Shown piece by piece: positions 19,133 to 54,590 of a stretch of 64,000 nt of DNA. The position numbers and the translations under genes were made by a program. The DNA is from Candidatus Nomurabacteria bacterium (GTDB lineage: Bacteria > Patescibacteriota > Patescibacteriia > UBA1558 > GWA2-36-10), in contig JACKFO010000002.1 in assembly GCA_020632415.1 (NCBI GenBank), positions 322,732 through 386,731 of the forward strand, in the 5' to 3' direction. A model generated the notes under the pieces. That model was not told the origin of the DNA. It did no database searches and saw only the letters and a program-made list of their open reading frames with translations. Within the stretch, counting starts at the first letter, position 1; each line of letters opens with the position of its first letter.

Positions 19133-21688
19133 TTAATCAACTAATTGATAAGGCAACAAATCCGCTTCAAAGCGAGAAATGCTACTGCCAGTTGGATAAA
19201 CGGACAAATCCGTTTTAATCACCACGTCTTTCATTCTAAAATAATTAGCGCTAAAGGCTGCTAAATTAGAAAAAGGTCTTTTTCTTCCGTTTTCAATATA
19301 ATAAATCGTGTCATTATCAGGCTCTTTAGCTAAAATTCCGCTTGGCAATAGATTATAAATATCATCTCCTTTTTCATAAGTAGTAGCAAAATAACCAGGA
19401 ATTACATCTTGTACCAAACGAAACCAATTATCGCCATACAAATGTCTAGCCATTTCCTCTGAAGGGATATATCTTAAAAATCCATTTGGTTCAACTGCAT
19501 AAATTTTATTTGAATCCACAGTAGTAACCAATTTTATTCCCGGACGATAAGTTATCACTCCTCCATCTGGATATAAATCTAATTCTGCAACATCAACTTT
19601 TACTACACGATCAAAATTATCATACCAAGTATAGTAGGTTTTTGGATCTGGAAAAGCATATTTCTTACCATCTTGGCCAATATAATAAACAGTTGCGTCT
19701 TTGACTCCAGCTTGAGCAAGTAATAAACCCGAGTCAGCAAACTCTTGAATACCTAAAACTTGTCCCACAGAAACTTGAATTGAATCATTGACAATAGAAC
19801 TAGTTCCTCTTCTATTTTTGAATTGAGCATAAACCGTTCTTGTGCCATTACCAGCAAGCAAAGCCCAAGGAGTGGTAGTACTATAAGCTCGCCAAGCAAC
19901 ATTATCAAAATTAGAAAAATTACTAATTCTCATTTCCAAAGGAGCATAGGCAGAAGTCATGTTATTAGCAAATAGATTCAAAGTTACCACGCTACTATTA
20001 CTAGTTGCTGCGTTATTATTAATCAAAACTTGTGGATTGCGAGGATTGGAGCTAATTCCTCCTCCGCCGCCTCCTCCGCCGCCTCCTCCGCCGCCACCGG
20101 AAATAGCATTAACAGTAATTGTGCTGGTAGCAAAATCAGAATAAGCTAAACCATCAAAAGCACGATAAGTAAACTGATCGGCACCAACAAATCCACTTTC
20201 TGGTGAATAAGTAAATGAACCATCGTCATTTAAGGTCAATTGTCCATGACTAACATTTGTTCCTAGAACACTAGATAGATCGTGTGGACCTTGATCACTA
20301 TCACTGTCATTGGCTAAAACACCATCTCCAGCTGAAATATTTAACTGAACATTTGCATTTGTCTGATAGCTATCATTATTGGCGACTGGATTTTCGTTTA
20401 GATTTTCTCCAACTGCCAAAATTACTTTGGCAAGATTAGAATAAGCTAAACCATCAAAAGCACGGTAAGTAAAAGCATCTTTTCCTTCAAAATCTGTATC
20501 TGGTACGTATTTAAAATTACCATTTACACCCATGATCAAAACTCCATGTTCAACCCAATTTTCAACTTTAACAGTCATAGGCTCTGGACGATTGTCTGGA
20601 TCTTTATCATTGTCCAAAATACTTTCCGGAGAAAGAATGAATGTTTCATTTTTATCTAATTGATAAGCATCACCTTTAGCAATTGGTGAGCGATTAGAAC
20701 CGGTATCTTTAACAACAACCTTAACTGTTGCAATGTCAGAATAATCAAGACCATCAAAGGCTTGATACCTAAAATAAGCATTGCCAACATAACCCTTTTC
20801 TGGCTTATAAATAAAAGACCCATTATTATTTAATTCTAAATGTCCATGAGTCAAATCTTCATTACCCATATCCCACAAACGAGCTGTTAAATGCTGCGGA
20901 CCATCTTGATCTTGGTCATTTGCCAAAACTCCATTTAAACGATCAATAGTTAAAAGATTACCGGAAACAACTGAATATAAATCTCCTTTAGCAATTGGCT
21001 TTTGATTATCAACCGGATCATTTCCGCGGCCAATTTCTATTTTGATGATAATTTCTTCAGTGTCCGTACCATTTACTGCCTTTAATCTTCCAGAGAACTT
21101 ATAGGTTCCTTCTGGCCAATCACCACGTATCTTAAAACTTTTTGTATCATCTAAAGCATCCTTAAAAACCAAACCATTTTGACCATTGGCATAAAGATAA
21201 AATATCGGTGCTCGATCATAAATAATATGATGCATCGGCTCAGTCATGTCACCAAGATAACGTAAAAAAGTACTTGGATAATCAACTATTGCAAAAGGAT
21301 AGTCGCCACGCAATACTTCGACGTTAGTGGAGCTCTCAATAGAATTAATATAATAAATTTCTATTTCTTCTTTGGTATTTAATTGATAACCGTGATCTAA
21401 ATCGCCACGCAATCTTTGCCATTCACGACCATCAAGTGAAGAAGCCAGGGTTAAACTCTCCAAGGTCAATCTTTCATTTTGATAACCAAAGCCACCATAA
21501 GGAGAGGTGTTATTTGGTTTTTTTGATGCTGTGCTCGCTGAATCTTGCTTAGTATTTTGATTGATCAAAACTTTAGCGCTGAGATTAGACACGTCTTCAC
21601 TGATCATCGCCAAAGCTGGCAATGAATAACTAAAGCTACTGCTCAACAAAATACTGGAAATAGTAAAAATACTAATAAATTTTTTCAT
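19133..21688 (-). CDS. large secreted protein with four tandem Ig/cadherin-like repeats and a Gly14 tract
   Basis: Signal peptide. Four repeats of the pattern PIAKGD.Y....N..L.I....VL.ND.D.D...L......V.HG.L.LN.DGSF.Y.P...F.G.D.F.YRAFDGL.YS. GGGGGGGGGGGGGG linker, then a C-terminal domain. Confidence 0.65.
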   Translation of the reverse strand: MKKFISIFTISSILLSSSFSYSLPALAMISEDVSNLSAKVLINQNTKQDSASTASKKPNNTSPYGGFGYQNERLTLESLTLASSLDGREWQRLRGDLDHGYQLNTKEEIEIYYINSIESSTNVEVLRGDYPFAIVDYPSTFLRYLGDMTEPMHHIIYDRAPIFYLYANGQNGLVFKDALDDTKSFKIRGDWPEGTYKFSGRLKAVNGTDTEEIIIKIEIGRGNDPVDNQKPIAKGDLYSVVSGNLLTIDRLNGVLANDQDQDGPQHLTARLWDMGNEDLTHGHLELNNNGSFIYKPEKGYVGNAYFRYQAFDGLDYSDIATVKVVVKDTGSNRSPIAKGDAYQLDKNETFILSPESILDNDKDPDNRPEPMTVKVENWVEHGVLIMGVNGNFKYVPDTDFEGKDAFTYRAFDGLAYSNLAKVILAVGENLNENPVANNDSYQTNANVQLNISAGDGVLANDSDSDQGPHDLSSVLGTNVSHGQLTLNDDGSFTYSPESGFVGADQFTYRAFDGLAYSDFATSTITVNAISGGGGGGGGGGGGGGISSNPRNPQVLINNNAATSNSSVVTLNLFANNMTSAYAPLEMRISNFSNFDNVAWRAYSTTTPWALLAGNGTRTVYAQFKNRRGTSSIVNDSIQVSVGQVLGIQEFADSGLLLAQAGVKDATVYYIGQDGKKYAFPDPKTYYTWYDNFDRVVKVDVAELDLYPDGGVITYRPGIKLVTTVDSNKIYAVEPNGFLRYIPSEEMARHLYGDNWFRLVQDVIPGYFATTYEKGDDIYNLLPSGILAKEPDNDTIYYIENGRKRPFSNLAAFSANYFRMKDVVIKTDLSVYPTGSSISRFEADLLPYQLVD
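20058..20099. repeat. 12-nt tandem repeat CCTCCTCCGCCG x3 (+CCACCG) encoding the poly-Gly tract
   Basis: Three exact 12-nt units read directly at 20058-20093. In frame (4 codons per unit). Confidence 0.9.
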
Positions 21689-21721
21689 ATACTTAAAAAG
21701 TTACAAACTTTATTTACAAAT

Positions 21722-23395
21722 TTAAAAAATAATTAAAAACCCTAACAACAATAGTAATAAAACCGCTGAACCAATTACTTTGTAATTTTGCTTTTTAATG
21801 TGTACAAAGATATTTAAAATCAAAGCAATACTTAATAACAAACCAAAAATCTTATAATAAATCAAAGAAATATTAAACAAAGTTTTTGTACCATCAAGTT
21901 GATTATGTCGCAAAAAGAAATATTGATTCAACAAAGAAGTCTTAACTGGCTTGATTTGATCAAAAGAAAGATCAACTGTATTTTGATTACCAGCAAAATC
22001 AATAATTTGCAAACTTGGTAAAATGATTGGATTAAAAAATTTTTCTGCTTGTTCTTTTGAAAAAGTTGTATAAGCTAGCCAATGTCCAGGATCATTTTGT
22101 TCTAAATCAACAAATACCCCACCGATATTAACCATTGCTGTTTCTACGTCTTCACTCAAATAAGCATCAATTTTAACAATTGCTTCATTTTTTCCTTCTG
22201 GTTGATCAATGATAATTTTTGTCTTTTCCAAATCAACGCTAGGCGCTGTCAAATCTACCTGATAATAATATTTTTCGGAACTAATTTGCTCTTGATCTTT
22301 GAAGGCAAGTAAATAAATCTCGTGCTCGCCTTCAGTTAAAGTAAGTGGCAAAATAAAATTATTCAAATTCTCCGCTTTGTTTTTATCGAGTAAAACTTGA
22401 CCATTGTCATAAACAATTATTTTATTTGAAGCTACGGATTCAATTTCTAAATCAATTTGGCTAAAGTTTGCCAAAAATCCAGTTTCCGGAGAGATGATTT
22501 TTGCTGGCAACAAAGGCTGGTTCAATTCTTGCTCAGCCAAAACCTGTGAATCAGAGATGATTTCTAAATCAGGAATATTTTCTTCTACTACAAAATCAAA
22601 GTTTTCTTCTGGCAAATCTAAAACTTCCGGTTGATTTTCTGCTTCGATAATCTGTGAATTGTTTAAATCATTTGTCTTGATTTCTGGAACAATACTTTCT
22701 GGAACTTTTACTTCAGTCACCTCCTTGATTTCTTCTGTTGTTTCTGTAATCGGCTGAACAACAACTCTTGGTTTGGCAAAAAACTGCGCTGCCAAAGTTG
22801 TGTCTCCACCATTATAAAGTCCATTAGCCATACTGACGCCAATTTCTGAATATAAAGGATCGATCAAGTTAGCATAGTGAGTAGGACTATTTTGCCAAGC
22901 TGCTACTACATCTTCGGCACTAGCAAAACCCATGGCCAGATTTTCACCAGCAACATGATAAGTGTAACCCAGTGCTCTTAGCCAAGAAGAGACTCGCTTG
23001 CCATCAGGACCAACATGCGCAAAATACTGCTCCAAAAGCATATCTTCCACTTTATTGTAAGCTGCTTGATCCAAAATCGCACTTTCGGTCAAGGGATTTA
23101 AATTTAAATTTACTCGAACTTGATTGGTCAAAGTGATGATTTTTTTACTTTCACCAGTCAAAACATCTGGAGTCAACCAAGCGGTAATTGGCAATAAAAC
23201 TACAAAAATAGCCACAATTACCTTCATGGCCACTGCTGAACTGGCATAAAAAAATAAACGACGATACTGCAAAGAATGAGGATGATAATCATTCTCAATG
23301 CTTGGAATAAAAAAATCCTTGACTTTAGTCCGCCAAGACTTATTTCCCTCTTTAAATTGTGGACCTAAATCTTCAAACATAAGTTTATGTTTCAT
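21722..23395 (-). CDS. CAP (SCP/PR1-like) domain protein with N- and C-terminal membrane anchors
   Basis: CAP core YFAHVGPDGKRVSSWL...HVAGENLAMGF...AAWQNSPTHYANLIDP.YSEIGVS. Confidence 0.7.
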   Translation of the reverse strand: MKHKLMFEDLGPQFKEGNKSWRTKVKDFFIPSIENDYHPHSLQYRRLFFYASSAVAMKVIVAIFVVLLPITAWLTPDVLTGESKKIITLTNQVRVNLNLNPLTESAILDQAAYNKVEDMLLEQYFAHVGPDGKRVSSWLRALGYTYHVAGENLAMGFASAEDVVAAWQNSPTHYANLIDPLYSEIGVSMANGLYNGGDTTLAAQFFAKPRVVVQPITETTEEIKEVTEVKVPESIVPEIKTNDLNNSQIIEAENQPEVLDLPEENFDFVVEENIPDLEIISDSQVLAEQELNQPLLPAKIISPETGFLANFSQIDLEIESVASNKIIVYDNGQVLLDKNKAENLNNFILPLTLTEGEHEIYLLAFKDQEQISSEKYYYQVDLTAPSVDLEKTKIIIDQPEGKNEAIVKIDAYLSEDVETAMVNIGGVFVDLEQNDPGHWLAYTTFSKEQAEKFFNPIILPSLQIIDFAGNQNTVDLSFDQIKPVKTSLLNQYFFLRHNQLDGTKTLFNISLIYYKIFGLLLSIALILNIFVHIKKQNYKVIGSAVLLLLLLGFLIIF

Positions 23396-23466
23396 ATTAA
23401 AATAACATATAAACTAAGAAAAGTCAACTCTAGATAGCTTACAAGCTTATTGTAAATAATTTTAAA

Positions 23467-23508
23467 TAAAAAAGAAAGCGGTGATCACGTTAGACGCGAC
23501 CACCGCTT
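23467..23508 (-). terminator. terminator of cassette B1
   Basis: Minus strand AAGCGGTG-17 nt-CACCGCTT followed by TCTTTTTT. Confidence 0.5.
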
Positions 23509-23529
23509 GAGAACATCGAAACCAGAAGA

Positions 23530-24513
23530 TCAGGGACGCCAGTAGTAGCGCACAGCCGCGACTGCCTGCTCGAGACGACTGTCGTAGCCGACCTGGAAGC
23601 TCAAAGAGCCGATCAGCTCCCCAGAATTCTTCCAGCCAAGAAAAGCCTGCCAGGCTTCAGCTTGCTCACCGAAGTCAAATCCTGAGGTCAAGAAGAACTT
23701 CTGCTTTGCTCCCAGACGGAGAAAATCCCAGTTTCCCTTCAAGACGTAGAGATTGTCCGGAGCGATCCATCCGTCCGGATGGAAGCGATAGCTCCAGCCA
23801 CCGGCCAAAGCCAAAGACTGCCAGGGTCGAGTGTAGAGCGAGACGTTATGACCAATCTCTTCTTCCCAGCTCAAGTGAAGATCGAAAATGCTCCAGTAGC
23901 CATTGAGGTGGTAGTTGCCGACCCAAACATCACTATCCAGCATCGGAAAAGCGCTGAACAAACTATCCAGACCTCGTGCTGGCCATGTACGACGAGCGCC
24001 ATAGCCCAAAGCAGCAGAAGCGCCAAAAGGTCGACCTCCCAACTGATCATACCAAGCGACTTGCAAGGCTGCTCCTGAGATACTCCCGGTAAAAGGCAGC
24101 TCAGCGTCATTTGGTCGCAAGAGAGTTGCTTCGTAGGCCTGAGGAAAGCTTTCCAAAGCCAGGTTTCGATACTGTCCAGCGCGCAGACTGAAATTCCCAT
24201 TGGAATTTCGCCAATCGTGCTGAACAAAGGCCTCGCTCAAGAAAGCCTCAGCCTGATCACCGTAAGCAATCTGACCTTCAGCCTTGAACGAAAAAACCTT
24301 GTTTTGACCACTTGAAACCCAAGCTTGTCCTCCTAGAAGGCTGTATGACCAGCGGGCTTGCAAGCTATCTTCGAAGCTGGTATTCAAACCAGCGCCTCCA
24401 TAGAAGTCCAGCTGGAAACGTTCCACCTGATCATCACTGGAAGCAGCAGCAAAAGCTGTGGACTGGGTCCAGAGGATCAACAGACCCAACAGCCAAAAAC
24501 TCAAAGTTTTCAT
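23530..24513 (-). CDS. orphan secreted protein with outer-membrane beta-barrel-like sequence pattern (G+C-rich cassette B1)
   Basis: GGAGGA SD. Signal peptide MKTLSFWLLGLLILWTQSTAFA/AASS. Many short alternating hydrophobic/aromatic strands (FQLDFYGGAG, RWSYSLLGG, FSFKAEGQIAYG, LQVAWYDQ, SLSFQVGYD) and an aromatic C-terminus VRYYWRP. G/C-ending codons. Confidence 0.6.
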   Translation of the reverse strand: MKTLSFWLLGLLILWTQSTAFAAASSDDQVERFQLDFYGGAGLNTSFEDSLQARWSYSLLGGQAWVSSGQNKVFSFKAEGQIAYGDQAEAFLSEAFVQHDWRNSNGNFSLRAGQYRNLALESFPQAYEATLLRPNDAELPFTGSISGAALQVAWYDQLGGRPFGASAALGYGARRTWPARGLDSLFSAFPMLDSDVWVGNYHLNGYWSIFDLHLSWEEEIGHNVSLYTRPWQSLALAGGWSYRFHPDGWIAPDNLYVLKGNWDFLRLGAKQKFFLTSGFDFGEQAEAWQAFLGWKNSGELIGSLSFQVGYDSRLEQAVAAVRYYWRP

Positions 24514-24620
24514 CGCCTTTTCCTCCGCGTTGCTTGATTTTGTTGTTATTTTCTGATTTCGTTTGTGTCAAAGATCGGGAGAACTTCATGTTTAAAAAAA
24601 CATGAAATATCCAACTGTAA

Positions 24621-24649
24621 ACCATACACCAAAATCTATTATTTGTCAA
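24621..24649 (-). promoter_or_regulatory. promoter of cassette B1
   Basis: Minus strand TTGACA (24644-24649), 17 nt, TATGGT (24621-24626). A 5' UTR of about 110 nt contains the palindrome at 24585-24606. Confidence 0.55.
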
Positions 24650-24679
24650 GTCTAGCTTATTTTAGCCCAAAAATAACTC

Positions 24680-24708
24680 TTGACAAATATTTTAAAATAG
24701 TATATAAT
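24680..24708 (+). promoter_or_regulatory. promoter of cassette B2
   Basis: TTGACA 24680-24685, 17-nt spacer, TATAAT 24703-24708. Confidence 0.65.
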
Positions 24709-24753
24709 ACTTTGTTACGTACACTGACAACCAAAACCACACGGAGGAACACC

Positions 24754-25500
24754 ATGAACCGCATTCACAGCTTCTGCCTGCTGATGCTCCTGTGCATCAG
24801 CGCCGCCTTCGCCGACGCCTACGAAGAACCCATCAAGAACACCAACCCCGACACCACGGCCACCACGGCGTCCTGGGAAGCGAACACGCTTCCGATGGAA
24901 CCCTGGCTGATCAAGTGGGACGCCAACGGCCAGCCGGTCAAGACGCATCGTCTGAGCTTCGAAATTTCCGGCAGCGACACCCTGTACTACAAGGGTGACT
25001 GCCTGATCGAAGATCAGCGCGTCCGCTGGTATCCGAAGTCCCTGCAGGACAACCGGATGCACTCGGCCTACTGGACCGCTCGTCGCAGCATGTACGCGGC
25101 ACTGCTCGTCGCCGGCTACCAAGCGCGCGAAGCCGACTCGCTCTGCCGCACGCTACAACCCGTGATCGATGGCCAGAAGGACAGTCGTCCCCTGCTCAAC
25201 CAGATCATGGCCGCCGCCCCGAACATCCACAAGCTGAACATGCTGGAACATGAGCTCCTGGCAATGCAACAGCAGATGGTCACCGTCGACATGCTCAACG
25301 AGTTCGCCGGAGACATCGACGCCGCCCTGTCCGAACACGTCAACTTCGCCGAAACGGTGGATGACTTCCTCAATCAGACACGAGGAAAGAAGTGGGGACG
25401 CGCCAAACGTGCTCACTCCCTCTTCCTGACATCGGCGCCGCCGAGCGAGGAACGATGCCTTCCGTCAACGGAAGAGATGCCCATGCCGAGCAAGTTCTGA
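24754..25500 (+). CDS. orphan secreted protein, 248 aa (G+C-rich cassette B2)
   Basis: GGAGGA 5 nt upstream of ATG 24754. Signal peptide MNRIHSFCLLMLLCISAAFA/DAYEE. Strongly G/C-ending codons. The track start at 24565 runs through the promoter and is rejected. Confidence 0.6.
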   Translation: MNRIHSFCLLMLLCISAAFADAYEEPIKNTNPDTTATTASWEANTLPMEPWLIKWDANGQPVKTHRLSFEISGSDTLYYKGDCLIEDQRVRWYPKSLQDNRMHSAYWTARRSMYAALLVAGYQAREADSLCRTLQPVIDGQKDSRPLLNQIMAAAPNIHKLNMLEHELLAMQQQMVTVDMLNEFAGDIDAALSEHVNFAETVDDFLNQTRGKKWGRAKRAHSLFLTSAPPSEERCLPSTEEMPMPSKF

Positions 25501-25529
25501 CCTCCTCCGTGAAGCGCAATTTCAGCGCA

Positions 25530-25571
25530 AGCCCGCCCCAAACTACAGCAGTAGCAAAGGCGGGCTTTTTC
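25530..25571 (+). terminator. terminator of cassette B2
   Basis: AGCCCGCC-21 nt-GGCGGGCT followed by TTTTT. The large loop lowers confidence. Confidence 0.45.
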
Positions 25572-25575
25572 TTTG

Positions 25576-25609
25576 ATTAAAAAACACCTCGCAGCTTAGC
25601 TGCGAGGTG
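25576..25609 (-). terminator. terminator of the giant-protein operon
   Basis: Minus strand CACCTCGCAGC-loop-GCTGCGAGGTG followed by TTTTTT. Confidence 0.8.
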
Positions 25610-25622
25610 AAATTTTATTTAT

Positions 25623-28600
25623 TTATTTTTTATACAAATTGTCTAAATCTACTTGATTACGAACTTCAATTGTTGGATCACCCAAAGGATCTAATCTAAA
25701 TAATTTACCGGCTTCTTTAACAAAGGTATTTCCTTCAGTATCAGTAAAAGTAGCGCCATCATTCATTTGTGATAATTGATCAAAACCACGGTGTACTTCA
25801 CCAGCTATTTCTGTGCTTGTCTGAGCTGCCTCAGCAACATTCTCGCTAACTGGAACTTGTTCAGGTATCGCCTCAGCTGACACTGGCTCTACCGGCTCTT
25901 CAATTGGCGTCTCAAAACTTTCTGGTTCCATAGCCCCAGCTGTCTCCCTAGCTTTCCTAGCTTGATCCAGACTTTCACTTAAACCAGACGCTTTTGGTTC
26001 TGGAATATTATCTGCTACTGGCGGCAAATTTTCAGACGCAGCTTTTGCCGCTGTTTTTACTGGCTCTGATAAAACTGAATTATCCAACCAAGATTCTAAA
26101 ACTTTTTCTTTCAAAGTCCAAGTATTGCCACTCAAGTCGTCTAACATATATTCTTCTTGACCAAATAAATGTTTTTTTACTAAATGCACAAAAGCATAAA
26201 ATTGACGACCATTTTCATCTTTGACTAAACGCGCCTCCCAAGCTTTACCAGGCAAAGAATCGCTAGTAGCTACTTTATCAAAAGCGGAAGTGTATCTTTC
26301 TACTGTTTCCAAATCATTTAGATCAGAAATCTTTACATTTGGCGCTTGTTCTACATATTTCAAAAATATCGCTGCTTTATTACTATCTGGTGTAAAAGAA
26401 TTTGGATAATAATCCTCCAAAAATTGCCTTTGTACCTCTGGAGAACTTTCAAAAACATGATTAACTAAAGCGTCAATTTCTTGTGGATTATTTTCTACTG
26501 CTCTTAAGAGCTCTTCTGAATAAGGAGTCTTACCAGCTAAAAATCCATCCAAATTAGCGGTAGCTACTTCTGCTGAGCCTGTTGTTTCTGGAACAAAATT
26601 ATGTCCACTATGATCTACCATTTTACTCAAATCATCTACTGTAACATCATGATTGTCTGCAAGACGATAAATTGTTTGACCATTGATTTCTACCTGCTCA
26701 ACTGGCTGATGATCAAAAGACCAATTATGCACTTCTCCATCATGAGACAACCAATCCGTACCATGTGCTCTAACTTCAGCAGCGATTTGGTCAACGCTTT
26801 CCGTACTGATTCTCACTCCATGTTTTGCTGCCTCGGCAATTGCTTCATTATTGGCAACAATATTTTGCATTTGCTCAGCAGTCAAAGCGCCTGATTTTTG
26901 CGCAGCTTCACTAATGTTTTCTGGATTAAATAAATTACCAAAATTTAACTTCGTGCCAAGCTTTAGCTGATCAACATCACCGTCAATACCAAAAGCTTTT
27001 GGATCAGCGACAATTTTATCTTTAAAATAATCAATAAAATAAGTACGCTGAGCTTCATTTAGATTGTTCCAATTTGGCACTCTAGCTCTTAACTGATCTT
27101 CTGTTAGATTCCAAACATTATCTCCTTTACTAACTACGGCTTCAACACTAATTCCTCCTTGATCTGGGATATTCTCTGCCACACCATGTGGTACTGGAGC
27201 GTCTGATTCTAAAGTTGGTCTTAAATAAGCTGTTTCTGGAGCGCCAGGATCAGCAACTTCCTGAGCGTGCTCTGCTGCGCCTTGCACCTGATCTGCGCCA
27301 TCAGCGTGACTTAATTTATCCAAAACTCTTGAACCAGCTATTGCTCCAACTGTCAAACCTAAAACCGCTGAGACGCCATATCGTCTCATAGCCTTCATAC
27401 GTGATTTATCTTGTGCGCTAGATAAAGTCTCTACCGTCTTCTGTTCTGTTTTTAAAGTCTCGCTGACAATATCAATTTTAACAGAATTAATTCTTTCATT
27501 ACCATTAACTATAGGCTCTCCTATAATTTCATCGAGAGCGATTTTATCTTGGAATTCCGACTTTAATCTTCGAAAATACTCTTCTTGAATCAAGTTCACA
27601 AAAGCTGCTTGCTCATCACCAAAACGACCAGCCTCAGCTAAACCAACTCTTTTATCTAAACTCAAAATTCTTAATCGCGCTAATTCTTTAGCTAATTCCT
27701 CTGTTGGATATTGCTCTTGATTTCCTAACACCTCTCTCCATTCAACGATATCTTCGTCTGTAATTTTTCCTGCTTCTGATTTTTTGCTTTTGAATCCAAG
27801 ATTTTTCATCTTGTCAATCAAACCTTTTTGTCCGCCCCATTCACTTCTTTTATCAATTGTTGCTTCAGCAAACATAAAAGTGCCCGTAGAAGACATCACG
27901 CCACGTGCTGTCAAAATACCAGCAACAACTCCAGTTGTACCACCGCTAAACAACAAACTAGCGCCAAACAAACCAACACCTAAACCTAATCTAATTTTTC
28001 CGGTTTTACGCCAAAATTCTTTAAATTTTCCAATAAAATTTTTATCCAAACCACTGGCTTCAGCGTCAATCGCCACTTCTTCGGCTTGTAACAAAGAAAT
28101 GTATTCGCTGGCCAATATGTTTTTAAGCTGTTCTATCGTAATCTTACCCTCAGTAAAATCTTGTAATAATTCTCCTTTTTTATTTTCCAAACTATCATGA
28201 ACATGCTTGTCTTTGGCCTCTTGGTAAGCTTGAGCTATTTTTTCAAATTTGCTTTTACCTCCACGAACAACCTGGCCTCTTTTATATAAAGCTTTTACAA
28301 AGGCTGAACGCAACTCATCTAAATTACCAGGAACAACATCTTCATAAGACTCATTTTCAATCTCCTCTGAAATTCCTCCGTCAATCACCTCCTCAACGCC
28401 TTCTTCAGTGCGATGGCTTTCTTCTGAATCTTCTTCAGTGGCGCCTTCTGCTGCTTTTTCAATTTCTTGACTAAAACGAGCAATAATATCATCCAACTTA
28501 TCTTCTAATTCCTCTCTTGGCAAACTTCTGTCTAAACTACTGATTTCATCAAGAAACTTAGCTTGAATTTCTGGATGTTTTTGACCGTCTTCATAATGAT

Positions 28601-30722
28601 TAATATATTCTTCATAGTCTTCAAATAATTTAACCATTTCATCATTTACCGGCTGTTTTTCTTGATCATTATCTCGTAATAATTCTAATTTCTGATCCAA
28701 AGCCTGATTAATCTCTCCAATTCTTTGATTTAGTTCTGCGATAGTTAAATTTTGATCAAGGGCTTTTATTTCGGCAATTTTAGCCGCAACTAAACCCGCT
28801 GCTTGTTCAGCTTTATTTCCATAATCATCAGCTCTCAATTCAGCAAATGTCTGATCTAATTCTTTAGCTGCTTTAGTAATTAATTTGGTTTGTTCATTAT
28901 TAGATTCAACTTGAGTTTCTACTTGTTCGGCTCCCTCTGCCACTTGACCATCTGCAGAATCCGATGCCGCTGTAGTGGCAGCTTCTCTATTTCTGTGATC
29001 TAAAGCTTCCTGAATAGTATAAACTTTTTCATTTGTTGTATTTGTATCCATTCCACGATCATTAAAAACAAAATCTGGATATGCAGTGGCAATCTTTTGT
29101 TCTAATTCGCTTAACTCTTCTCCCTCGATAATTTTGATCATTACTCTTCTAACCGCATTAATTAGTTCAACTTGAATCACATAATCTGACATGCTTTCGA
29201 TCGGATCACCAAACTTCCAACCACCCGGATTAGTTAATTGATCATTGACAATTTTAGCAAATAATCTTTCATCATAAGCAAATCTCATGCGATCATAAAC
29301 CCCTGCGGTTGGTACCGAATCTGGAGCTTCTTCTTCCGCTGCTTCAGGAGCATCATCGATATTTGAATCTACTTCTTTAGGTTCTAATTTAGCAACTAAA
29401 TCTGGAGACAAAAGCTTCCAAATAACAAATGGCTCTTGGCCTTCAATTTTGACTTCAAATTTTACTTTTTTCCAACCCTTATATGCGTCTTTGATTTCTG
29501 CTGAAGTGATCAAAGCTGCTGGGCGTACTTCATTGCGCAAACCCAACTGTAACTCTCCAGAAAGCTCGGTTAATTCATTACCCATTAATTGATTTACAGC
29601 GTCTACTATACCATCAAGATGCTCTTTGGCATCAAACTCAACCTGACCATCACCCATGATCATCAAATCGACTACTTTTGCTGCAAAGTCTTTTGGCATT
29701 AAAAAACTTTCCATCCCAGGTAGACCCTTAACAAAAGCTGAATCTACTTTAACTAATTCGTCAGTACCAAATTCTTCCATCGCACCTTCTTTTTCTGGAT
29801 CAAAATTTTCTATGCCTTGAAATTTAAACTCTGTTGGTATATTTATAATCACCTCCATCATTGCTCCGCTGCGCTCACCCAAACCTCTTTCAAATTCTTC
29901 AAGAGAAAAATCTAGCCTCCTTAAATCCTCTGGAACTTCGACAACAGGACTAACAGGCTTTTGACCAACGATTTTTGATGCTTCTTGATCAACAGGATTA
30001 GTACCAGTAACAGCACTATCTGGACGCAAGGCTGCTAAAAACTTCGGAAATTTATCAACCACATCTTCTATTTCTGCTGCTTTCAATCTTTTTAAACCAG
30101 ACAAATTACTTGCTAGCTTATCTTGTGCTTTTTTAAGAATTTCCTCATCAACACCCGAAGCTCTAAATTTTCTAAAATCACCACGCAAAATAGGCTCTGC
30201 TGCTTTTTCAATCGCAGCAAGAAATTCACGGCCGATATTTTGCATTTTTTCTTCAACGGCAGCTGAATCATCAAAAAAATGAGGATCATTAATTTGCTTC
30301 AATAAATCCTCTCTCTTGCTTTCAGCTAATAAATTGCTGTCTTTAATAGCCCTTTCTAATCTATCAAGCTCCTCTGCTAAGCGCTCCTGATCTGCATCAA
30401 AATCAGCTTCTTTTCCAAATACAGCATGTGCTAAATTATCAACTAATTCTTTAGTGGATTTGCCCGCTTGCTCTGCTTCAAGCCGCAAGCTAGGATCTTT
30501 AACTTCTGCTTTAAACTCATCAACATTTTGATCAACTTTTTGCTCAGTTTCTTGCGCAACTTGCAAAACTTGATCTGGTCGAGCTTCTGTCTCTGCTCCT
30601 GCTGTTAAATTTTCTTGACGATCTTGAGCTAAAAGCGCATCAATTCTTTCTGGATCAATTGCGCCAGGAATATTCTCTCCATTCCTTTTTTCTCTTAAAT
30701 GCCTGGATTGTTTATCACCCAT
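25623..30722 (-). CDS. giant orphan protein, 1699 aa, acidic coiled-coil-rich with central hydrophobic segments
   Basis: Single uninterrupted frame in backbone-type A+T-rich DNA. Hydrophobic stretches LGLGVGLFGASLLFSGGTTGVVAGIL and YGVSAVLGLTVGAIAG. No family recognised with confidence. Confidence 0.8.
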   Translation of the reverse strand: MGDKQSRHLREKRNGENIPGAIDPERIDALLAQDRQENLTAGAETEARPDQVLQVAQETEQKVDQNVDEFKAEVKDPSLRLEAEQAGKSTKELVDNLAHAVFGKEADFDADQERLAEELDRLERAIKDSNLLAESKREDLLKQINDPHFFDDSAAVEEKMQNIGREFLAAIEKAAEPILRGDFRKFRASGVDEEILKKAQDKLASNLSGLKRLKAAEIEDVVDKFPKFLAALRPDSAVTGTNPVDQEASKIVGQKPVSPVVEVPEDLRRLDFSLEEFERGLGERSGAMMEVIINIPTEFKFQGIENFDPEKEGAMEEFGTDELVKVDSAFVKGLPGMESFLMPKDFAAKVVDLMIMGDGQVEFDAKEHLDGIVDAVNQLMGNELTELSGELQLGLRNEVRPAALITSAEIKDAYKGWKKVKFEVKIEGQEPFVIWKLLSPDLVAKLEPKEVDSNIDDAPEAAEEEAPDSVPTAGVYDRMRFAYDERLFAKIVNDQLTNPGGWKFGDPIESMSDYVIQVELINAVRRVMIKIIEGEELSELEQKIATAYPDFVFNDRGMDTNTTNEKVYTIQEALDHRNREAATTAASDSADGQVAEGAEQVETQVESNNEQTKLITKAAKELDQTFAELRADDYGNKAEQAAGLVAAKIAEIKALDQNLTIAELNQRIGEINQALDQKLELLRDNDQEKQPVNDEMVKLFEDYEEYINHYEDGQKHPEIQAKFLDEISSLDRSLPREELEDKLDDIIARFSQEIEKAAEGATEEDSEESHRTEEGVEEVIDGGISEEIENESYEDVVPGNLDELRSAFVKALYKRGQVVRGGKSKFEKIAQAYQEAKDKHVHDSLENKKGELLQDFTEGKITIEQLKNILASEYISLLQAEEVAIDAEASGLDKNFIGKFKEFWRKTGKIRLGLGVGLFGASLLFSGGTTGVVAGILTARGVMSSTGTFMFAEATIDKRSEWGGQKGLIDKMKNLGFKSKKSEAGKITDEDIVEWREVLGNQEQYPTEELAKELARLRILSLDKRVGLAEAGRFGDEQAAFVNLIQEEYFRRLKSEFQDKIALDEIIGEPIVNGNERINSVKIDIVSETLKTEQKTVETLSSAQDKSRMKAMRRYGVSAVLGLTVGAIAGSRVLDKLSHADGADQVQGAAEHAQEVADPGAPETAYLRPTLESDAPVPHGVAENIPDQGGISVEAVVSKGDNVWNLTEDQLRARVPNWNNLNEAQRTYFIDYFKDKIVADPKAFGIDGDVDQLKLGTKLNFGNLFNPENISEAAQKSGALTAEQMQNIVANNEAIAEAAKHGVRISTESVDQIAAEVRAHGTDWLSHDGEVHNWSFDHQPVEQVEINGQTIYRLADNHDVTVDDLSKMVDHSGHNFVPETTGSAEVATANLDGFLAGKTPYSEELLRAVENNPQEIDALVNHVFESSPEVQRQFLEDYYPNSFTPDSNKAAIFLKYVEQAPNVKISDLNDLETVERYTSAFDKVATSDSLPGKAWEARLVKDENGRQFYAFVHLVKKHLFGQEEYMLDDLSGNTWTLKEKVLESWLDNSVLSEPVKTAAKAASENLPPVADNIPEPKASGLSESLDQARKARETAGAMEPESFETPIEEPVEPVSAEAIPEQVPVSENVAEAAQTSTEIAGEVHRGFDQLSQMNDGATFTDTEGNTFVKEAGKLFRLDPLGDPTIEVRNQVDLDNLYKK

Positions 30723-30723
30723 A

Positions 30724-30891
30724 TTATAATTGTTTATGAATTTTATCTAAAACCTTGTCTATTTCTTTTTGTTCAATAGACTTAATTTCCGCGCGAACCT
30801 TTTCGTTTGCGCGGTCTTTTAATTTATCTAATTCCTGCAAAAAATCTTGATAAATTTCTCTGATTTTTTTGATTTTTTCGTTGTTGGTCAT
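30724..30891 (-). CDS. small coiled-coil protein, 55 aa, translationally coupled to the giant gene
   Basis: ATG at 30889-30891 (MTNNEKIKKIREIYQDFLQELDKLKDRANEK...). Its stop at 30724-30726 lies 1 nt before the giant-gene ATG at 30720-30722. Below the track size cut-off. Confidence 0.45.
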   Translation of the reverse strand: MTNNEKIKKIREIYQDFLQELDKLKDRANEKVRAEIKSIEQKEIDKVLDKIHKQL

Positions 30892-30901
30892 AGCTTAAAA
30901 A

Positions 30902-31201
30902 CTAGGCATTAAAAACCTTGTCTTTCATGTTTAGCATTTCTTGCTTTAAATCATCAATGATTTGTTTGTGTAAGTCAGCAAAATTCGGCACTTTGCTTTT
31001 TATAAATTCATCAATGCCCTCGCCTTTTTCTAACACTTTGTCAAATTCAAGCTTATCTTCTTCAGACATTGCACCCAATAAAGCTCTGTTAAAACGACTT
31101 TCAATGACGTCAATGATTTGCTCACGCAAAGCTTGTTTTTTTTCTTCTGCTAAATCATTTAAGCCAAACTCTGTTAAAATATCAAATTGTTCTTCTGCCA
31201 T
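30902..31201 (-). CDS. small acidic helical protein, 99 aa (resembles a small conserved CPR family)
   Basis: MAEEQFDILTEFGLNDLAEEKKQALREQIIDVIESRF... First gene of the three-gene unit ending in the giant protein. Confidence 0.65.
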   Translation of the reverse strand: MAEEQFDILTEFGLNDLAEEKKQALREQIIDVIESRFNRALLGAMSEEDKLEFDKVLEKGEGIDEFIKSKVPNFADLHKQIIDDLKQEMLNMKDKVFNA

Positions 31202-31274
31202 AATTTTATTTGTTCCACTACTAGTGGCTAGTTAATTTTATTGACTTAATTATACAATAAATCAACAATTTAGC

Positions 31275-31320
31275 AAAATAAAAAGCCCACCACTATTCCC
31301 GAAGGATTTCGTGGTGGGCT
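31275..31320 (-). terminator. terminator of cassette C
   Basis: Minus strand AGCCCACCAC-17 nt-GTGGTGGGCT followed by TTTTTATTTT. Confidence 0.65.
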
Positions 31321-31338: not shown

Positions 31339-32688
31339 CTAGTCGACGTTCACTGTGCCAACAGCGCCACCGCCTCTGACCTTGATATTGGAGTTTTTCT
31401 TCTCAGCCAAATCTCCAATCTCTTGCAGACAACGCAGACGCTGTTCATAGGTTGCTGTTTCGGGGTTCAGGCCTAAAGCCGCCAAAGCAGCATCAATCTC
31501 TGCTGTGAAAGCCTCGCCATCTGCCTTGCGAAGACGAATCTTACGCTTGGATTCAGACTCAGCGGCGGCCTCAGCATTTTGAGCTTTTTCGATCTCTGGA
31601 TCTCTAGTGGGATCACCAAAGTCCAAAGTATCGAAAGCATGCCCAACGGCCTCCAGCAACTTGCCATTAAGTTCGGTTTGCTTCGAATGATCAAAGGTTA
31701 CGTCCAAACCCTTGACCTGATCGAAACTCATAGAGCTCATGACACTTATCACATCATTGACAATTACTGTGCCAGCTACCTCAACCGAAGTCGACTGATC
31801 CTCAGACGACATCCGCAGAAAACGAGAAGGATGCTGACAAGTAATCACGCCAACTCGAAGATCAATATTGGCAGTAGAGTTGTCTCCTAGCGGCACAAAA
31901 CCAGTCTTGTATTTGCGTTCTATGGCCTCATAACGCAACAGAGTGACGCTATAGAGAAACATCCAAACTGGAATTCCTACTCGGCCCAGATACCAAGGCA
32001 AGATTGGCGCATTTATGTCACTATCACGATGATTGCCGTGATTAGATCCATAAAAATACCAATCGCCAAATTTCTTCCTGATCGGACCTCTCGGAATCAG
32101 AAATGGCCTATTCATGAACTTCGGAACCCAGCGCTCGGTCACTTCCGGCACCATGATCGAACCAATACTCCAGAAAATTGGTAAAGCCAAGAGAAAGACT
32201 GGCTGCCAGATACCAACCATAGCGCAGGTGAAAAAGCCGACAGCAGAAATTACTCCGAACCCGTAAGGTCTGGCCGGAGGCGGAGCTGGTTTTTGACCCT
32301 TGACTACATCACGCTTATCAATGAAAAAGCTGCCGGTCCAAGCTCGGCGGAAAGCGATCACGCCGAAGCCTAGCAAAACAAGGCTGGCGATCAGCTTCCA
32401 CCAAGGGAATTCTCCGTTGAAATTAAGCCAGGAGAAAAGCTGCCAGTTCCACGGCTTCAGCAACAAAGCTGCGTACCAAAGAACAAGTCCAAGCTGCAAA
32501 GCGATCCGAGTCCTCTTATCCTTAGATGTTTTAGGCTTCTTATCCTTGTCCAGATCAACGAGCCAGCTATTCAAGCTCCAGTAGATACTGAGCGGCAAGG
32601 CAAAGAAGATCAGGAAAATAGCGATGCCGTGAACAAATTGTGGGTCTTTCCATCCCACACGGCTGATGATTTTCTCCAAGGCTTCCAT
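31339..32688 (-). CDS. orphan polytopic membrane protein with soluble C-terminal domain, 449 aa (G+C-elevated cassette C)
   Basis: AAGGAG SD 7 nt from the ATG. About 6-7 Trp/Phe-rich hydrophobic helices in the first 250 aa, a PAPPPARP linker, and a charged Ala/Glu-rich C-terminus. G+C is visibly above the flanks. Confidence 0.65.
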   Translation of the reverse strand: MEALEKIISRVGWKDPQFVHGIAIFLIFFALPLSIYWSLNSWLVDLDKDKKPKTSKDKRTRIALQLGLVLWYAALLLKPWNWQLFSWLNFNGEFPWWKLIASLVLLGFGVIAFRRAWTGSFFIDKRDVVKGQKPAPPPARPYGFGVISAVGFFTCAMVGIWQPVFLLALPIFWSIGSIMVPEVTERWVPKFMNRPFLIPRGPIRKKFGDWYFYGSNHGNHRDSDINAPILPWYLGRVGIPVWMFLYSVTLLRYEAIERKYKTGFVPLGDNSTANIDLRVGVITCQHPSRFLRMSSEDQSTSVEVAGTVIVNDVISVMSSMSFDQVKGLDVTFDHSKQTELNGKLLEAVGHAFDTLDFGDPTRDPEIEKAQNAEAAAESESKRKIRLRKADGEAFTAEIDAALAALGLNPETATYEQRLRCLQEIGDLAEKKNSNIKVRGGGAVGTVNVD

Positions 32689-49979: not shown

Positions 49980-50429
49980 ATGAGTCCCAAGACCAAATTT
50001 TACTGCTGGCTGGCGGCGATGACCGTCATCACTCTGACGACTCTTTTTGTTGTCAACGCAGTGAGTGGTAATCCCACATTAGCCATATCCGCCGCATTCG
50101 GCGCGTTCGCTATCACCGTAATAGTCGCGCTCGCTGTCGCCACATCATCTGTCGTGCTCGCCGGACTCATCGCACTCCTGATCGCCAGCGGAGGCGGAGT
50201 GGTCGCGTGCGCTGTCGCACTCCTGATCACCGCCAGAGCCGGAGTGGTCGCGAACGTCGACGCATTCGCCGGACTCGCCGCCGCATCCTTAGCATTCGCC
50301 ATATCCGTCGTAATTATCTTCATCCTTTCTGCTTATAAGAGCACTCTTTCCAAGAGGCATATCCTTCTTTCAATGACGGTGGTATCCATTGTCATCGCCA
50401 CCCCGATGCTCTACCTCGCACTGCAGTAG
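49980..50429 (+). CDS. orphan Ala/Val/Ile-rich polytopic membrane protein, 149 aa (G+C-rich cassette E)
   Basis: AAGGAGGG SD. Almost entirely hydrophobic sequence with an internal duplicated segment. The antisense ORF 50000..50323 is an artefact of high G+C. Confidence 0.55.
   Translation: MSPKTKFYCWLAAMTVITLTTLFVVNAVSGNPTLAISAAFGAFAITVIVALAVATSSVVLAGLIALLIASGGGVVACAVALLITARAGVVANVDAFAGLAAASLAFAISVVIIFILSAYKSTLSKRHILLSMTVVSIVIATPMLYLALQ
50170..50252. repeat. internal tandem duplication (about 45-nt period) inside the cassette E ORF
   Basis: TCGCACTCCTGATC at 50170 and 50215; GGAGTGGTCGCG at 50196 and 50241. Gives peptide IALLIASGGGVVAC / ALLITARAGVVAN. Confidence 0.8.
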
Positions 50430-53951: not shown

Positions 53952-54015
53952 TCAAAATCTAAAATTGTCCTTTTCGCTTTTCAATAACCAATCACCTCAA
54001 GCAACCGGAGCAAAA

Positions 54016-54558
54016 ATGCAAGCCTTTCATGAGTGGTTCGTCCACGAACTCGAGCAACGGCAGAACACGATCGACAATCCCTGTCCGATCGAAGTCGAAG
54101 TCAATGAATCGGGTACGGTACTCGGTACCCTACCCGACAACCTGAAGCCCCTCTTCTTCCTGATGCTCGACCTGATCGATGAGCGCAACGAGTCCGCCAC
54201 CGCGCTCCACGACTGGATCGTGGAACACCCCGGATTCCACCCGGCACACCCCGAAGATGCCAAGCCGGAACTGATCGGGGAATTCCAGGAGAAGAAGATC
54301 AATCACCGAGTCGCCTGCGACAAGCTGAAGACGATCACGTCCTACTTCTGGAGCAGCATCCACCACATCTTCCCCGACAGCCACAACCACAACAAGATGG
54401 AGGTCTGCAAGGACTGGCAGATCGTCTGCGGAGATGATGAAGGTGACATCAAGATCGATATCATCGGCATCGGCGGCATTCCCTCCGACTTCGTCGGTGG
54501 CTCCACCGTCGATCCCTTCGGCGACCTCCTCGGCAGCTTCTTCCGTCGAGGACACTGA
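54016..54558 (+). CDS. orphan acidic His-rich cytoplasmic protein, 180 aa (G+C-rich cassette F)
   Basis: GGAG 5 nt upstream of ATG 54016 (MQAFHEWFVHELEQ...). G/C-ending codons. Three antisense track ORFs here are artefacts of high G+C. Confidence 0.55.
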   Translation: MQAFHEWFVHELEQRQNTIDNPCPIEVEVNESGTVLGTLPDNLKPLFFLMLDLIDERNESATALHDWIVEHPGFHPAHPEDAKPELIGEFQEKKINHRVACDKLKTITSYFWSSIHHIFPDSHNHNKMEVCKDWQIVCGDDEGDIKIDIIGIGGIPSDFVGGSTVDPFGDLLGSFFRRGH

Positions 54559-54590
54559 CGCCTCAACGCAGCAGAAATGATTGGCCACAG

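Follow-up and report, generated by a model that had tools for sequence, protein, structure and literature searches.

What does a protein of 1699 amino acids, encoded together with two small proteins, do in a bacterium of the Patescibacteria, whose genomes are tiny? Its gene lies in the window that we analysed (the whole stretch of DNA, 64 kb long, on a contig of 842 kb), and the original prediction described it as a giant orphan that ends a three-gene operon and as a candidate host-attachment or envelope-spanning machine. To keep a conserved gene of 5 kb, together with two partners dedicated to it, is a large investment for such a genome, and the gene probably matters for the biology of the envelope.

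A conserved lineage-specific three-gene operon

The three ORFs (99, 55 and 1699 aa) have exactly the coordinates first given for them (Table 1), and they form one unit, as had been proposed: they share a promoter and a terminator, they are separated by 10 nt (99-aa and 55-aa genes) and by 1 nt (55-aa gene and giant), and the two small genes accompany the giant, in unchanged order, at all related loci. A single base lies between the TAA stop of the 55-aa gene and the ATG of the giant. The TTGCTA-16-TATAAT promoter is present, although it sits about 17 nt further upstream than had been indicated. The predicted terminator was found as well, with an 11-bp stem (25609-25585 on the minus strand) that contains 8 G-C pairs, and a T-run.

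Table 1. Features of the operon and of the giant protein, with their positions in the window
Feature	Residues	Position	Strand	Remarks
Sigma-70-like promoter		31249..31276	-	TTGCTA-16-TATAAT; follows closely on the terminator of the 449-aa gene that lies upstream
DUF5663-family gene	99 aa	30902..31201	-	First of three; acidic protein
55-aa gene	55 aa	30724..30891	-	Second of three; charged protein
Giant gene	1699 aa	25623..30722	-	Third of three; NCBI H6761_01730, annotated hypothetical, Candidatus Nomurabacteria bacterium
Acidic N-terminal region	1-264	29931..30722	-	Poorly conserved, predicted cytoplasmic
FliY-type CheC-like domain	265-455	29358..29930	-	Optional cassette
Remnant of second CheC active-site motif	370-401	29520..29615	-	D370-x3-D374-x2-N377-x23-P401
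Very acidic region	456-905	28008..29357	-	Lineage-variable
Conserved block	606-683	28674-28907		Within the 456-905 region
Glycine-rich hydrophobic hairpin	908-952	27867..28001	-	K/R-rich flanks on both sides
Predicted transmembrane helix	1114-1134	27321..27383	-	KSRMKAMRRY before, acidic stretch after
C-terminal region	1141-1699	25626..27302	-	Predicted extracytoplasmic; conserved core of the giant family
Best-conserved family-specific domain	1385-1549	26076..26570	-	VFES..Q.FL.D...F....NKA..FL ... LPG..W..RL
Small C-terminal beta-rich domain	1640-1699	25626..25805	-	Modelled at pLDDT ~80
Intrinsic operon terminator		25577..25609	-	Hairpin foldable on either strand
Second hairpin		~25529-25567		Terminates the convergent plus-strand gene

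The gene trio, in constant order and with tight spacing, was found at at least ten other loci of Patescibacteria. The longer order Fpg-SdpI-p449-DUF5663-55aa-giant is seen in L001, L002, L005, L006/L010, L007/L012, L008, L011, L013, L014 and the P0125 locus, and L015 carries a distant version of the trio (113 aa, 62 aa and a giant of 1393 aa). The giants form about five clusters at 50% identity; their ORFs are intact (1156-1843 aa) in at least seven independent assemblies, while the gene is split at the P0125 locus (269 + 1070 aa). When the giant codons of L002 and L005 were compared, 892 positions were identical, 239 differed by synonymous changes only and 423 by non-synonymous ones, and this excess of synonymous-only differences points to constraint on the giant. 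No Pfam model covers the giant family as a whole, and a word-indexed homology search with the C-terminal alignment of the giants returned one protein. Since the trio is conserved at at least ten syntenic loci, the giant is neither a pseudogene nor the orphan that it was taken to be, and represents a rare lineage-specific family. In summary, the trio constitutes a conserved lineage-specific three-gene operon.

The 99-aa protein matches the Pfam profile PF18908 (DUF5663) with 26.7 bits (cut-off 23.7, E 8.4e-6) over profile positions 1-83 of 84, which makes it by score a member of this family, to which no function has been assigned; no paper mentioning DUF5663 was found among those searched. An ORF of this type, of about 100 aa, occupies the equivalent position in all related loci, and the counterparts in L001, L014 and the P0125 locus also score above the gathering cut-off, while that of L005 scores at it. 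The 55-aa protein has exactly this length in seven aligned loci (59 aa in L014 and 62 aa in L015) and is 54-65% identical across close loci, and in the six related loci checked 1-11 nt separate its gene from that of the giant downstream. Judged by eye, both small proteins look helical. Sequence searches of the PDB with p449, p99 and p327 gave no matches.

The operon was also checked against PADLOC and PHROGs models and for presence in phages and plasmids; there were no matches, and an anti-phage defence system and a phage or plasmid origin were rejected.

Regions of the giant protein and its CheC-like domain

The giant has a net charge of -138 (331 D+E versus 193 K+R) and no cysteines, it lacks a signal peptide, as had been claimed, and a search for internal repeats found none. 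The two glycine-rich hydrophobic stretches noticed earlier near its middle correspond to aa 908-952 and aa 1114-1134. By the positive-inside rule, the former is predicted to enter the membrane either as a pair of helices or as a re-entrant loop, its two ends remaining in the cytoplasm, whereas the basic residues before aa 1114-1134 and the acidic stretch after it suggest that the C-terminal region lies outside. CheC-family domains are cytoplasmic. From the hydrophobic peaks (weak, Kyte-Doolittle 1.4-1.56), the flanking charges and the cytoplasmic nature of the CheC-like domain described below, we predict a cytoplasmic part of about 900 acidic residues, then the glycine-rich hairpin and a single transmembrane helix, and finally an outside part of about 560 residues. 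The description of the giant as envelope-spanning would fit this N-in/C-out topology. That of a host-attachment machine is not supported, as about two thirds of the protein are predicted to be cytoplasmic and the outside part is without adhesin-type repeats.

For the predicted outside region (aa 1141-1699), there was no recognisable fold match and no profile match. The domain at aa 1385-1549 is present in the seven giants aligned over their C-terminal regions, with a diverged VFNS in P0125, and the small domain at aa 1640-1699 in five of the seven, L006 and L008 ending before it. A KGD(N/T)VW motif resembles LysM, and the structure model has a beta-alpha-alpha-beta stretch there. However, the proposed LysM-type assignment was not borne out: LysM profiles matched neither the giant nor its C-terminal piece (E up to 10) nor the C-terminal regions of L002, L006, L008 and P0125, and there was no convincing fold match.

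The sole recognisable part of the giant is aa 265-455, which is a member of the CheC-like superfamily (CheC/CheX/FliY/FliM middle domain), of the FliY type. A resemblance to CheC/CheX/FliM folds, first put forward as a weak pattern match, is thus seen both in sequence and in structure. The domain matches FliY of T. maritima (PDB 4hyn) with E 2.7e-8 in phmmer and 1.5e-11 in a profile search, and its AF2 model (pLDDT 94.3, pTM 0.89) has 4hyn as the best Foldseek match in the PDB (E 1.6e-13, TM 0.74). The top 38 structures all belong to CheC, FliY, FliM or CheX, the CheC and CheX phosphatases and the FliM middle domain being matched at E 1e-10 to 1e-6. An exhaustive HMM search with the domain gave 115 matches, among them FliY proteins with E values as low as 1e-65. 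Unlike CheC and CheX themselves, the domain stays below the Pfam cut-offs (CheX, 15.4 bits against 27; the CheC model was not reached either) and has no chemotaxis context. Among the papers searched, none combined a CheC-like domain with CPR bacteria.

The closest small relatives, about 50% identical, consist of a CheC-like domain and FliMN_C (E ~1e-24 in P0005, P0008 and P0011-13), and their genes lie between fliM and fliO, in flagellar operons of high GC content; L003 and L009 served as true FliY loci for comparison. In a neighbour-joining tree, the domains of the giants group with FliY from a 70%-GC flagellar operon. Unlike FliY, the giant has no FliN domain (no match to PF01052, FliMN_C) and no fliM-fliY-fliO or other flagellar cluster, and its CheC-like domain is a dispensable part of a membrane protein of 1699 aa. 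Patescibacteria are generally without flagella, and the host is presumably non-flagellated. A module of the flagellar C-ring/CheY-phosphatase type outside a flagellar or chemotaxis context hence offers a concrete and testable example of a flagellar component apparently recruited elsewhere.

In active members of the superfamily, the Glu and Asn of the consensus D/S-x3-E-x2-N-x22-P insert into the active site of the receiver (PMC3035606). The segment HLDGIVDAVNQ...RP of the giant (aa 368-401, encoded at 29520-29621) holds what is left of the second such motif. Asp374 takes the place of a Glu whose conservation within the subfamily is at least 90%, and D374 and N377 lie on one helix of the AF2 model (aa 365-391), so that the one retained site resembles that of CheX. 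The first active site is degenerate, both in the giant (E-R-G-L) and across the whole subfamily. The canonical D-x3-E-x2-N is retained in P0002 and P0007; in P0009/L002 both catalytic residues are lost, as in FliM, their positions being taken by H and S.

The CheC-like domain is present in the giants of the window, L001, L002 and L007 and absent from those of L005, L006 and L008, and between L002 and L005 it is taken out by a clean in-frame indel. It is therefore an optional cassette within the giant family, and its absence from close relatives, together with the loss of the catalytic residues in P0009/L002, implies that its role is not essential to the family. Such clean gain and loss between close genomes provides a natural experiment for finding partners by phylogenetic profiling. 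Among the 43 ORFs of the window scanned against Pfam, there were no receiver-domain, chemotaxis, flagellar or pilus genes; Patescibacteria in general have very few genes of these types (PMC7137472).

Possible roles of the giant protein

We tentatively propose, with a probability of roughly 0.4, that the giant spans the envelope as a scaffold whose cytoplasmic heads can be exchanged, the head here being an exapted flagellar-switch module that docks a cytoplasmic partner. The data show how the operon is built, that its three genes are conserved and co-occur, and what the CheC-like domain is, where it came from and which relatives have it; topology, scaffold function, docking partner and the tasks of the two small proteins are the parts that we infer. 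The first 900 or so acidic residues would lie in the cytoplasm, with the hairpin and the single transmembrane helix as the anchor, and the conserved core would be placed outside the membrane, conjecturally against the wall or the surface. The cytoplasmic part would be modular and would vary among relatives, its CheC-like domain having been captured here from flagellar FliY. This domain would dock a cytoplasmic partner, for which a CheY-like receiver protein is the best guess, and a weak phosphatase activity may persist because the acidic Asp374 and Asn377 are kept. The 99-aa and 55-aa proteins, co-translated with the giant, would probably bind its cytoplasmic region as adaptors or chaperones.

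In its general layout only, such a protein would be comparable to the polar hubs FimV and HubP, which likewise combine a very large, strongly acidic region in the cytoplasm with an anchor in the membrane and a domain beyond it; in these hubs, signalling proteins, CheY-like ones among them, are recruited in this way. The giant is not a member of their family: it has no sequence, NCBIfam or Pfam match to them, its predicted orientation is inverted (N-terminus inside), and LysM was not confirmed in it. A more specific version of the scaffold proposal is speculative and rather unlikely, namely that a clade of Patescibacteria captured the FliY CheC-like module from a GC-rich flagellated bacterium and built it into a giant hub, where the module would recognise, and perhaps dephosphorylate, a CheY-like regulator and so couple a minimal phosphorelay to a fixed site of the envelope (pilus, attachment or division). 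If true, this CheY-coupled hub would be a new type of membrane-anchored signalling platform of the CheC family and a clear case of exaptation of a flagellar part in CPR bacteria.

Alternatively, the giant could be a membrane-anchored, active CheC-type phosphatase whose main job is to dephosphorylate a CheY-like regulator, for instance of type IV pili, at a fixed membrane site. The fold and the closest relatives are those of FliY phosphatase-type domains, D374 and N377 provide an acidic residue and an Asn at i/i+3 on the correct helix, with the canonical motif in P0002 and P0007, and the mechanism has been described (PMC3035606). We nevertheless consider this doubtful, given that Glu is changed to Asp here, that P0009 has neither of the two residues, that the first site has degenerated throughout the subfamily, that L005, L006 and L008 have lost the domain but kept the other parts of the operon, that no receiver gene lies nearby among the scanned ORFs of the 64-kb window and that the catalytic domain makes up only 11% of the giant. 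With its 190 residues, its confident model and a defined candidate active site, the CheC-like domain offers a starting point for experiments. A tether for cell division or the cytoskeleton, in which a membrane-anchored coiled-coil protein analogous to organisers of the EzrA/DivIVA type would join the divisome to the wall, could explain the long, acidic, helical-looking cytoplasmic region followed by a membrane anchor, as well as the position of the L015 trio immediately downstream of ftsZ and the DivIC and FtsE/FtsX-type genes within a few kb in the P0125 and L006 genomes. But the adjacency to ftsZ is confined to one distant locus, the window and its close relatives having Fpg, SdpI, CAP, Big/cadherin surface proteins, Dus and CorA as neighbours, and the giant is not similar to any known division protein, so a tether is also improbable.

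The CAP and Big/cadherin genes alongside, the conserved core of about 560 aa predicted to be outside and the LysM-like stretch would suit a surface adhesin or host-attachment protein that attaches by its C-terminal region to a host cell or to the wall of its own cell; given the predominantly cytoplasmic prediction and the LysM results above, we regard this as quite unlikely. That the gene is decaying or non-functional, either a chance long ORF or a pseudogene, is barely credible and already largely refuted: the want of a characterised family, the split gene at the P0125 locus and the highly variable cytoplasmic region would agree with it, whereas the intact ORFs in independent assemblies, the conserved partners and spacing, the synonymous-only excess and the operon's own promoter and terminator argue against it. 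The scaffold with exchangeable cytoplasmic heads is the reading that we prefer.

G+C-rich flanking DNA

The original prediction placed the operon between two G+C-rich cassettes. The flanks are indeed G+C-rich, at 0.48-0.55 compared to 0.33-0.38 for the operon and the backbone, but the reading as cassettes is not supported, as they consist of conserved syntenic genes common to the relatives and not of insertions peculiar to this genome. Recent horizontal cassettes beside the operon were rejected, since synteny and high GC content of these genes extend to all relatives. A search of the GC-rich flanks for structured RNA with Rfam found none, the only hits being six tRNAs elsewhere in the window. 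In all relatives, the GC3 of the flanking genes stays high, amid CPR genomes of low GC.

The operon and its family

The three genes of the operon have exactly the coordinates and lengths that had been predicted, with 10 nt between the 99-aa and 55-aa genes and a single base between the stop codon of the latter and the ATG of the giant (1699 aa). The strong terminator foreseen at the end of the operon was found as a hairpin followed by a T-run, while the promoter-like site is present but about 17 nt further upstream than had been indicated. Two back-to-back hairpins occupy 25529-25609, between convergent genes. The giant is annotated as H6761_01730, 'hypothetical protein' (NCBI, Candidatus Nomurabacteria bacterium, 842-kb contig), and elsewhere the window holds ordinary housekeeping genes (CTP synthase, ArgRS, DnaB, RecR, LexA, Fpg, TIM, aldolase and tRNAs).

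Features of the giant's operon and of the G+C-rich regions in the window
Feature	Position	Strand	Remark
First gene, 99 aa	30902-31201	-	DUF5663-type
Second gene, 55 aa	30724-30891	-	
Third gene, giant, 1699 aa	25623-30722	-	
Glycine-rich hydrophobic stretches of the giant	aa 908-952; aa 1114-1134		
Promoter-like TTGCTA-16-TATAAT	31276-31249	-	directly past the upstream gene's terminator
Operon terminator	25609-25585		strong hairpin, then T-run; folds on either strand; ends the giant's operon
Second hairpin	~25529-25567		GCCCGCCCC...GGCGGGC, then T-run; ends the + strand gene
p449	31339-32688	-	
Promoter-like site of p449	32815-32787		12/12 match
p311	24565-25500	+	
TTGACA-17-TATAAT ahead of the alternative ATG of p311	24680-24708		perfect
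p327	23530-24513	-	
Short G+C-rich island	49980-50429	+	
Short G+C-rich island	54000-54560		

A word-indexed search returned just three partial relatives of the giant, and an exhaustive profile search together with locus scans yielded further giants of 1156-1843 aa. Its description as an orphan was thus too strong, as giants occur in multiple related loci, and the family is rare but real. Its members include P0007 (locus L001), P0009 (L002), P0002, P0003, P0004 and P0006; other loci belong to Patescibacteria Gw_Eff_bin_26 (L005) and Parcubacteria GW2011_GWA2_36_10 (L007/L012/L013) or lie on a contig labelled Gammaproteobacteria and syntenic with the window (L006/L010), in addition to L008, L011, L014 and P0125. 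The L006 contig (CAZXZY010000001.1) is titled 'uncultured Gammaproteobacteria bacterium', yet it has 35% G+C and shares with the window its gene order and 62% (Fpg) and 71% (99-aa protein) identity, and is probably a mis-assigned Patescibacteria contig. At the P0125 locus (JGI 3300072015, 168-kb contig), gene calling gives two ORFs for the giant, 269 and 1070 aa long and 3 nt apart, which could reflect a sequencing frameshift, a true split or a stop codon.

A small ORF related to the 55-aa gene lies 5′ of the giant in every locus with enough sequence. Its length is exactly 55 aa in all seven loci that were aligned, and L014 has 59 aa; identity among close loci is 54-65%, and the distance to the giant is 1-11 nt in the loci checked for spacing. 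Ahead of this ORF comes in turn another of DUF5663 type, about 100 aa long. The wider conserved order is Fpg-SdpI-p449-DUF5663-55aa-giant-(p311)-p327-CAP-Big. The family and its partners are conserved, and L002 and L005 have 892 identical codon positions, 239 with synonymous differences only and 423 with non-synonymous ones. Two outcomes that would have spoken against the original prediction, a pseudogene or unconserved partners, are therefore not seen; that the giant is non-functional DNA is extremely improbable. A distant version of the module lies directly downstream of ftsZ (L015:6329-12357) and comprises a 113-aa ORF, a 62-aa ORF resembling the 55-aa one (38% identity) and an acidic giant of 1393 aa that weakly matches the 'DP..FGY.GD' block.

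A CheC-like domain of FliY type

A Pfam scan of the whole giant gave no match. However, residues ~316-446 match the CheC-like middle domain of T. maritima FliY (PDB 4hyn) with an E-value of 3.8e-7 (2.7e-8 for the isolated segment, 1.5e-11 for the family profile), and NCBIfam FliY models match the same stretch. For aa 265-455, an AF2 model based on 31 sequences reached a pLDDT of 94.3, and its 38 significant PDB matches are all FliY, CheC, FliM-middle or CheX. By structure, the giant belongs to the CheC-like superfamily, with an uncertain catalytic status.

An HMM of aa 265-455, searched exhaustively, found 115 proteins, the best non-giant matches being proteins of 317-353 aa in which the CheC-like domain is followed by FliMN_C (P0005, P0008 and P0011-13, E 1e-65 to 1e-26). 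Three of these proteins could be placed on contigs, and each is encoded with fliM on one side and fliO on the other, within a flagellar operon; the two for which DNA was available have 66-70% G+C. Whereas FliY carries a FliN (FliMN_C) domain and sits in a flagellar operon, the giant has neither and hence is not a FliY. Genes for flagella and chemotaxis are generally missing from Patescibacteria as a group (PMC7137472). An NJ tree places the giants' domains together with the FliY P0005 in a single clade inside the flagellar FliYs, which is compatible with a FliY module having been captured by the Patescibacteria lineage. The literature searched contained no mention of DUF5663, nor of a CheC-like domain together with CPR; both the architecture and the lineage in which the CheC-like domain occurs here are without precedent.

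Enzymes of the CheC/CheX/FliY kind act by placing two residues, an Asn and an acidic one, in the active site of the receiver (PMC3035606). The second site of the window giant reads D370-x3-D374-x2-N377-x23-P401, with an Asp in place of a Glu whose conservation across the subfamily is at least 90%. The canonical pair of Glu and Asn survives in P0002 and P0007, the two catalytic positions are occupied by His and Ser in P0009, and the first active site is degenerate across the whole subfamily. By HMM, the domain is present in the window, L001, L002 and L007, and none was detected in L005, L006 or L008. Between L002:532-5934 and L005:6398-11287, which are otherwise close and whose 55-aa proteins differ at one residue, a clean in-frame indel of ~200 residues removes exactly the CheC-like domain. 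The domain is an optional cassette, and so the core function of the family does not need it. In the domain retained by L002, both catalytic residues are already lost. Judged from these sequences, its role in the window is more likely to be binding than essential catalysis, and an active, anchored phosphatase, for which the residues kept in P0002 and P0007 would speak, appears unlikely.

Architecture and possible role of the giant

As predicted, the giant lacks a signal peptide and contains two glycine-rich hydrophobic stretches; it is also free of cysteine and has 331 D+E vs 193 K+R. The charges flanking the hydrophobic segments predict an N-terminus inside, a hairpin and a C-terminus outside. 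Sequence conservation among the giants is concentrated in aa 606-683, in the hydrophobic region, in aa 1181-1549 (most of all 1385-1549) and in aa 1617-1699. The proposed LysM resemblance found no support, with no LysM profile match in any family member tested, and defence, phage and plasmid collections gave no match. Beyond the CheC-like domain, some ~1500 residues of the giant fall into no described family.

The best-supported reading, to which we tentatively give a probability of about 0.4, is that the giant would be an envelope-spanning scaffold with a modular cytoplasmic 'head', which in the window genome would include an exapted FliY/CheC-like module. This module would probably dock a partner, the likeliest candidate being a CheY-like receiver, and the two small proteins, DUF5663 and 55-aa, would be obligate partners. 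A tether for division or the cytoskeleton is as doubtful as the phosphatase, and a surface adhesin, which would draw on the C-terminus predicted outside, is somewhat less probable still. The remaining probability falls to something not yet imagined.

G+C-rich flanks and islands

The flanks are G+C-rich, as had been noted (0.48-0.55 vs 0.33-0.38 for the operon and backbone). The flanking genes p449, p311 and p327 have a GC of 0.47-0.57 and a GC3 of 0.51-0.78, against a GC3 of 0.19-0.34 in their neighbours. They are G+C-rich in every related genome having them (L001, L002, L005, L007 and L008), and despite this shared richness, the orthologues are just 23-50% identical; a high GC3 is thus maintained in low-GC CPR genomes. 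By eye, p311 and p327 have hydrophobic, signal-peptide-like N-termini. The GTG start listed for p311 is probably wrong: an alternative ATG at 24754 (MNRIHSFCLL..., hydrophobic and signal-peptide-like), preceded by a perfect promoter-like sequence, gives 248 aa, matching the 249-aa orthologue of L001.

Upstream of the operon, p449 is a membrane protein with a weak SPFH/Band-7 match (E 0.006, below cut-off) and with its own promoter-like site and terminator. Most relatives keep it beside the operon, and hence it may be functionally linked to it. In L006/L010 and at the P0125 locus, Dus and CorA directly follow the giant, and p311, p327, CAP and Big/cadherin (window 19133-25500) are absent; this segment is a surface-protein island, present or absent among relatives.

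The window also holds two further short G+C-rich islands (0.54-0.56). An Rfam scan matched neither, and a 229-aa ORF spanning the second had no Pfam match. One island has a 149-aa, Ala/Val-rich hydrophobic ORF, and the other has an ORF of ~180 aa from MQAFHEWF..., overlapped by antisense ORFs.
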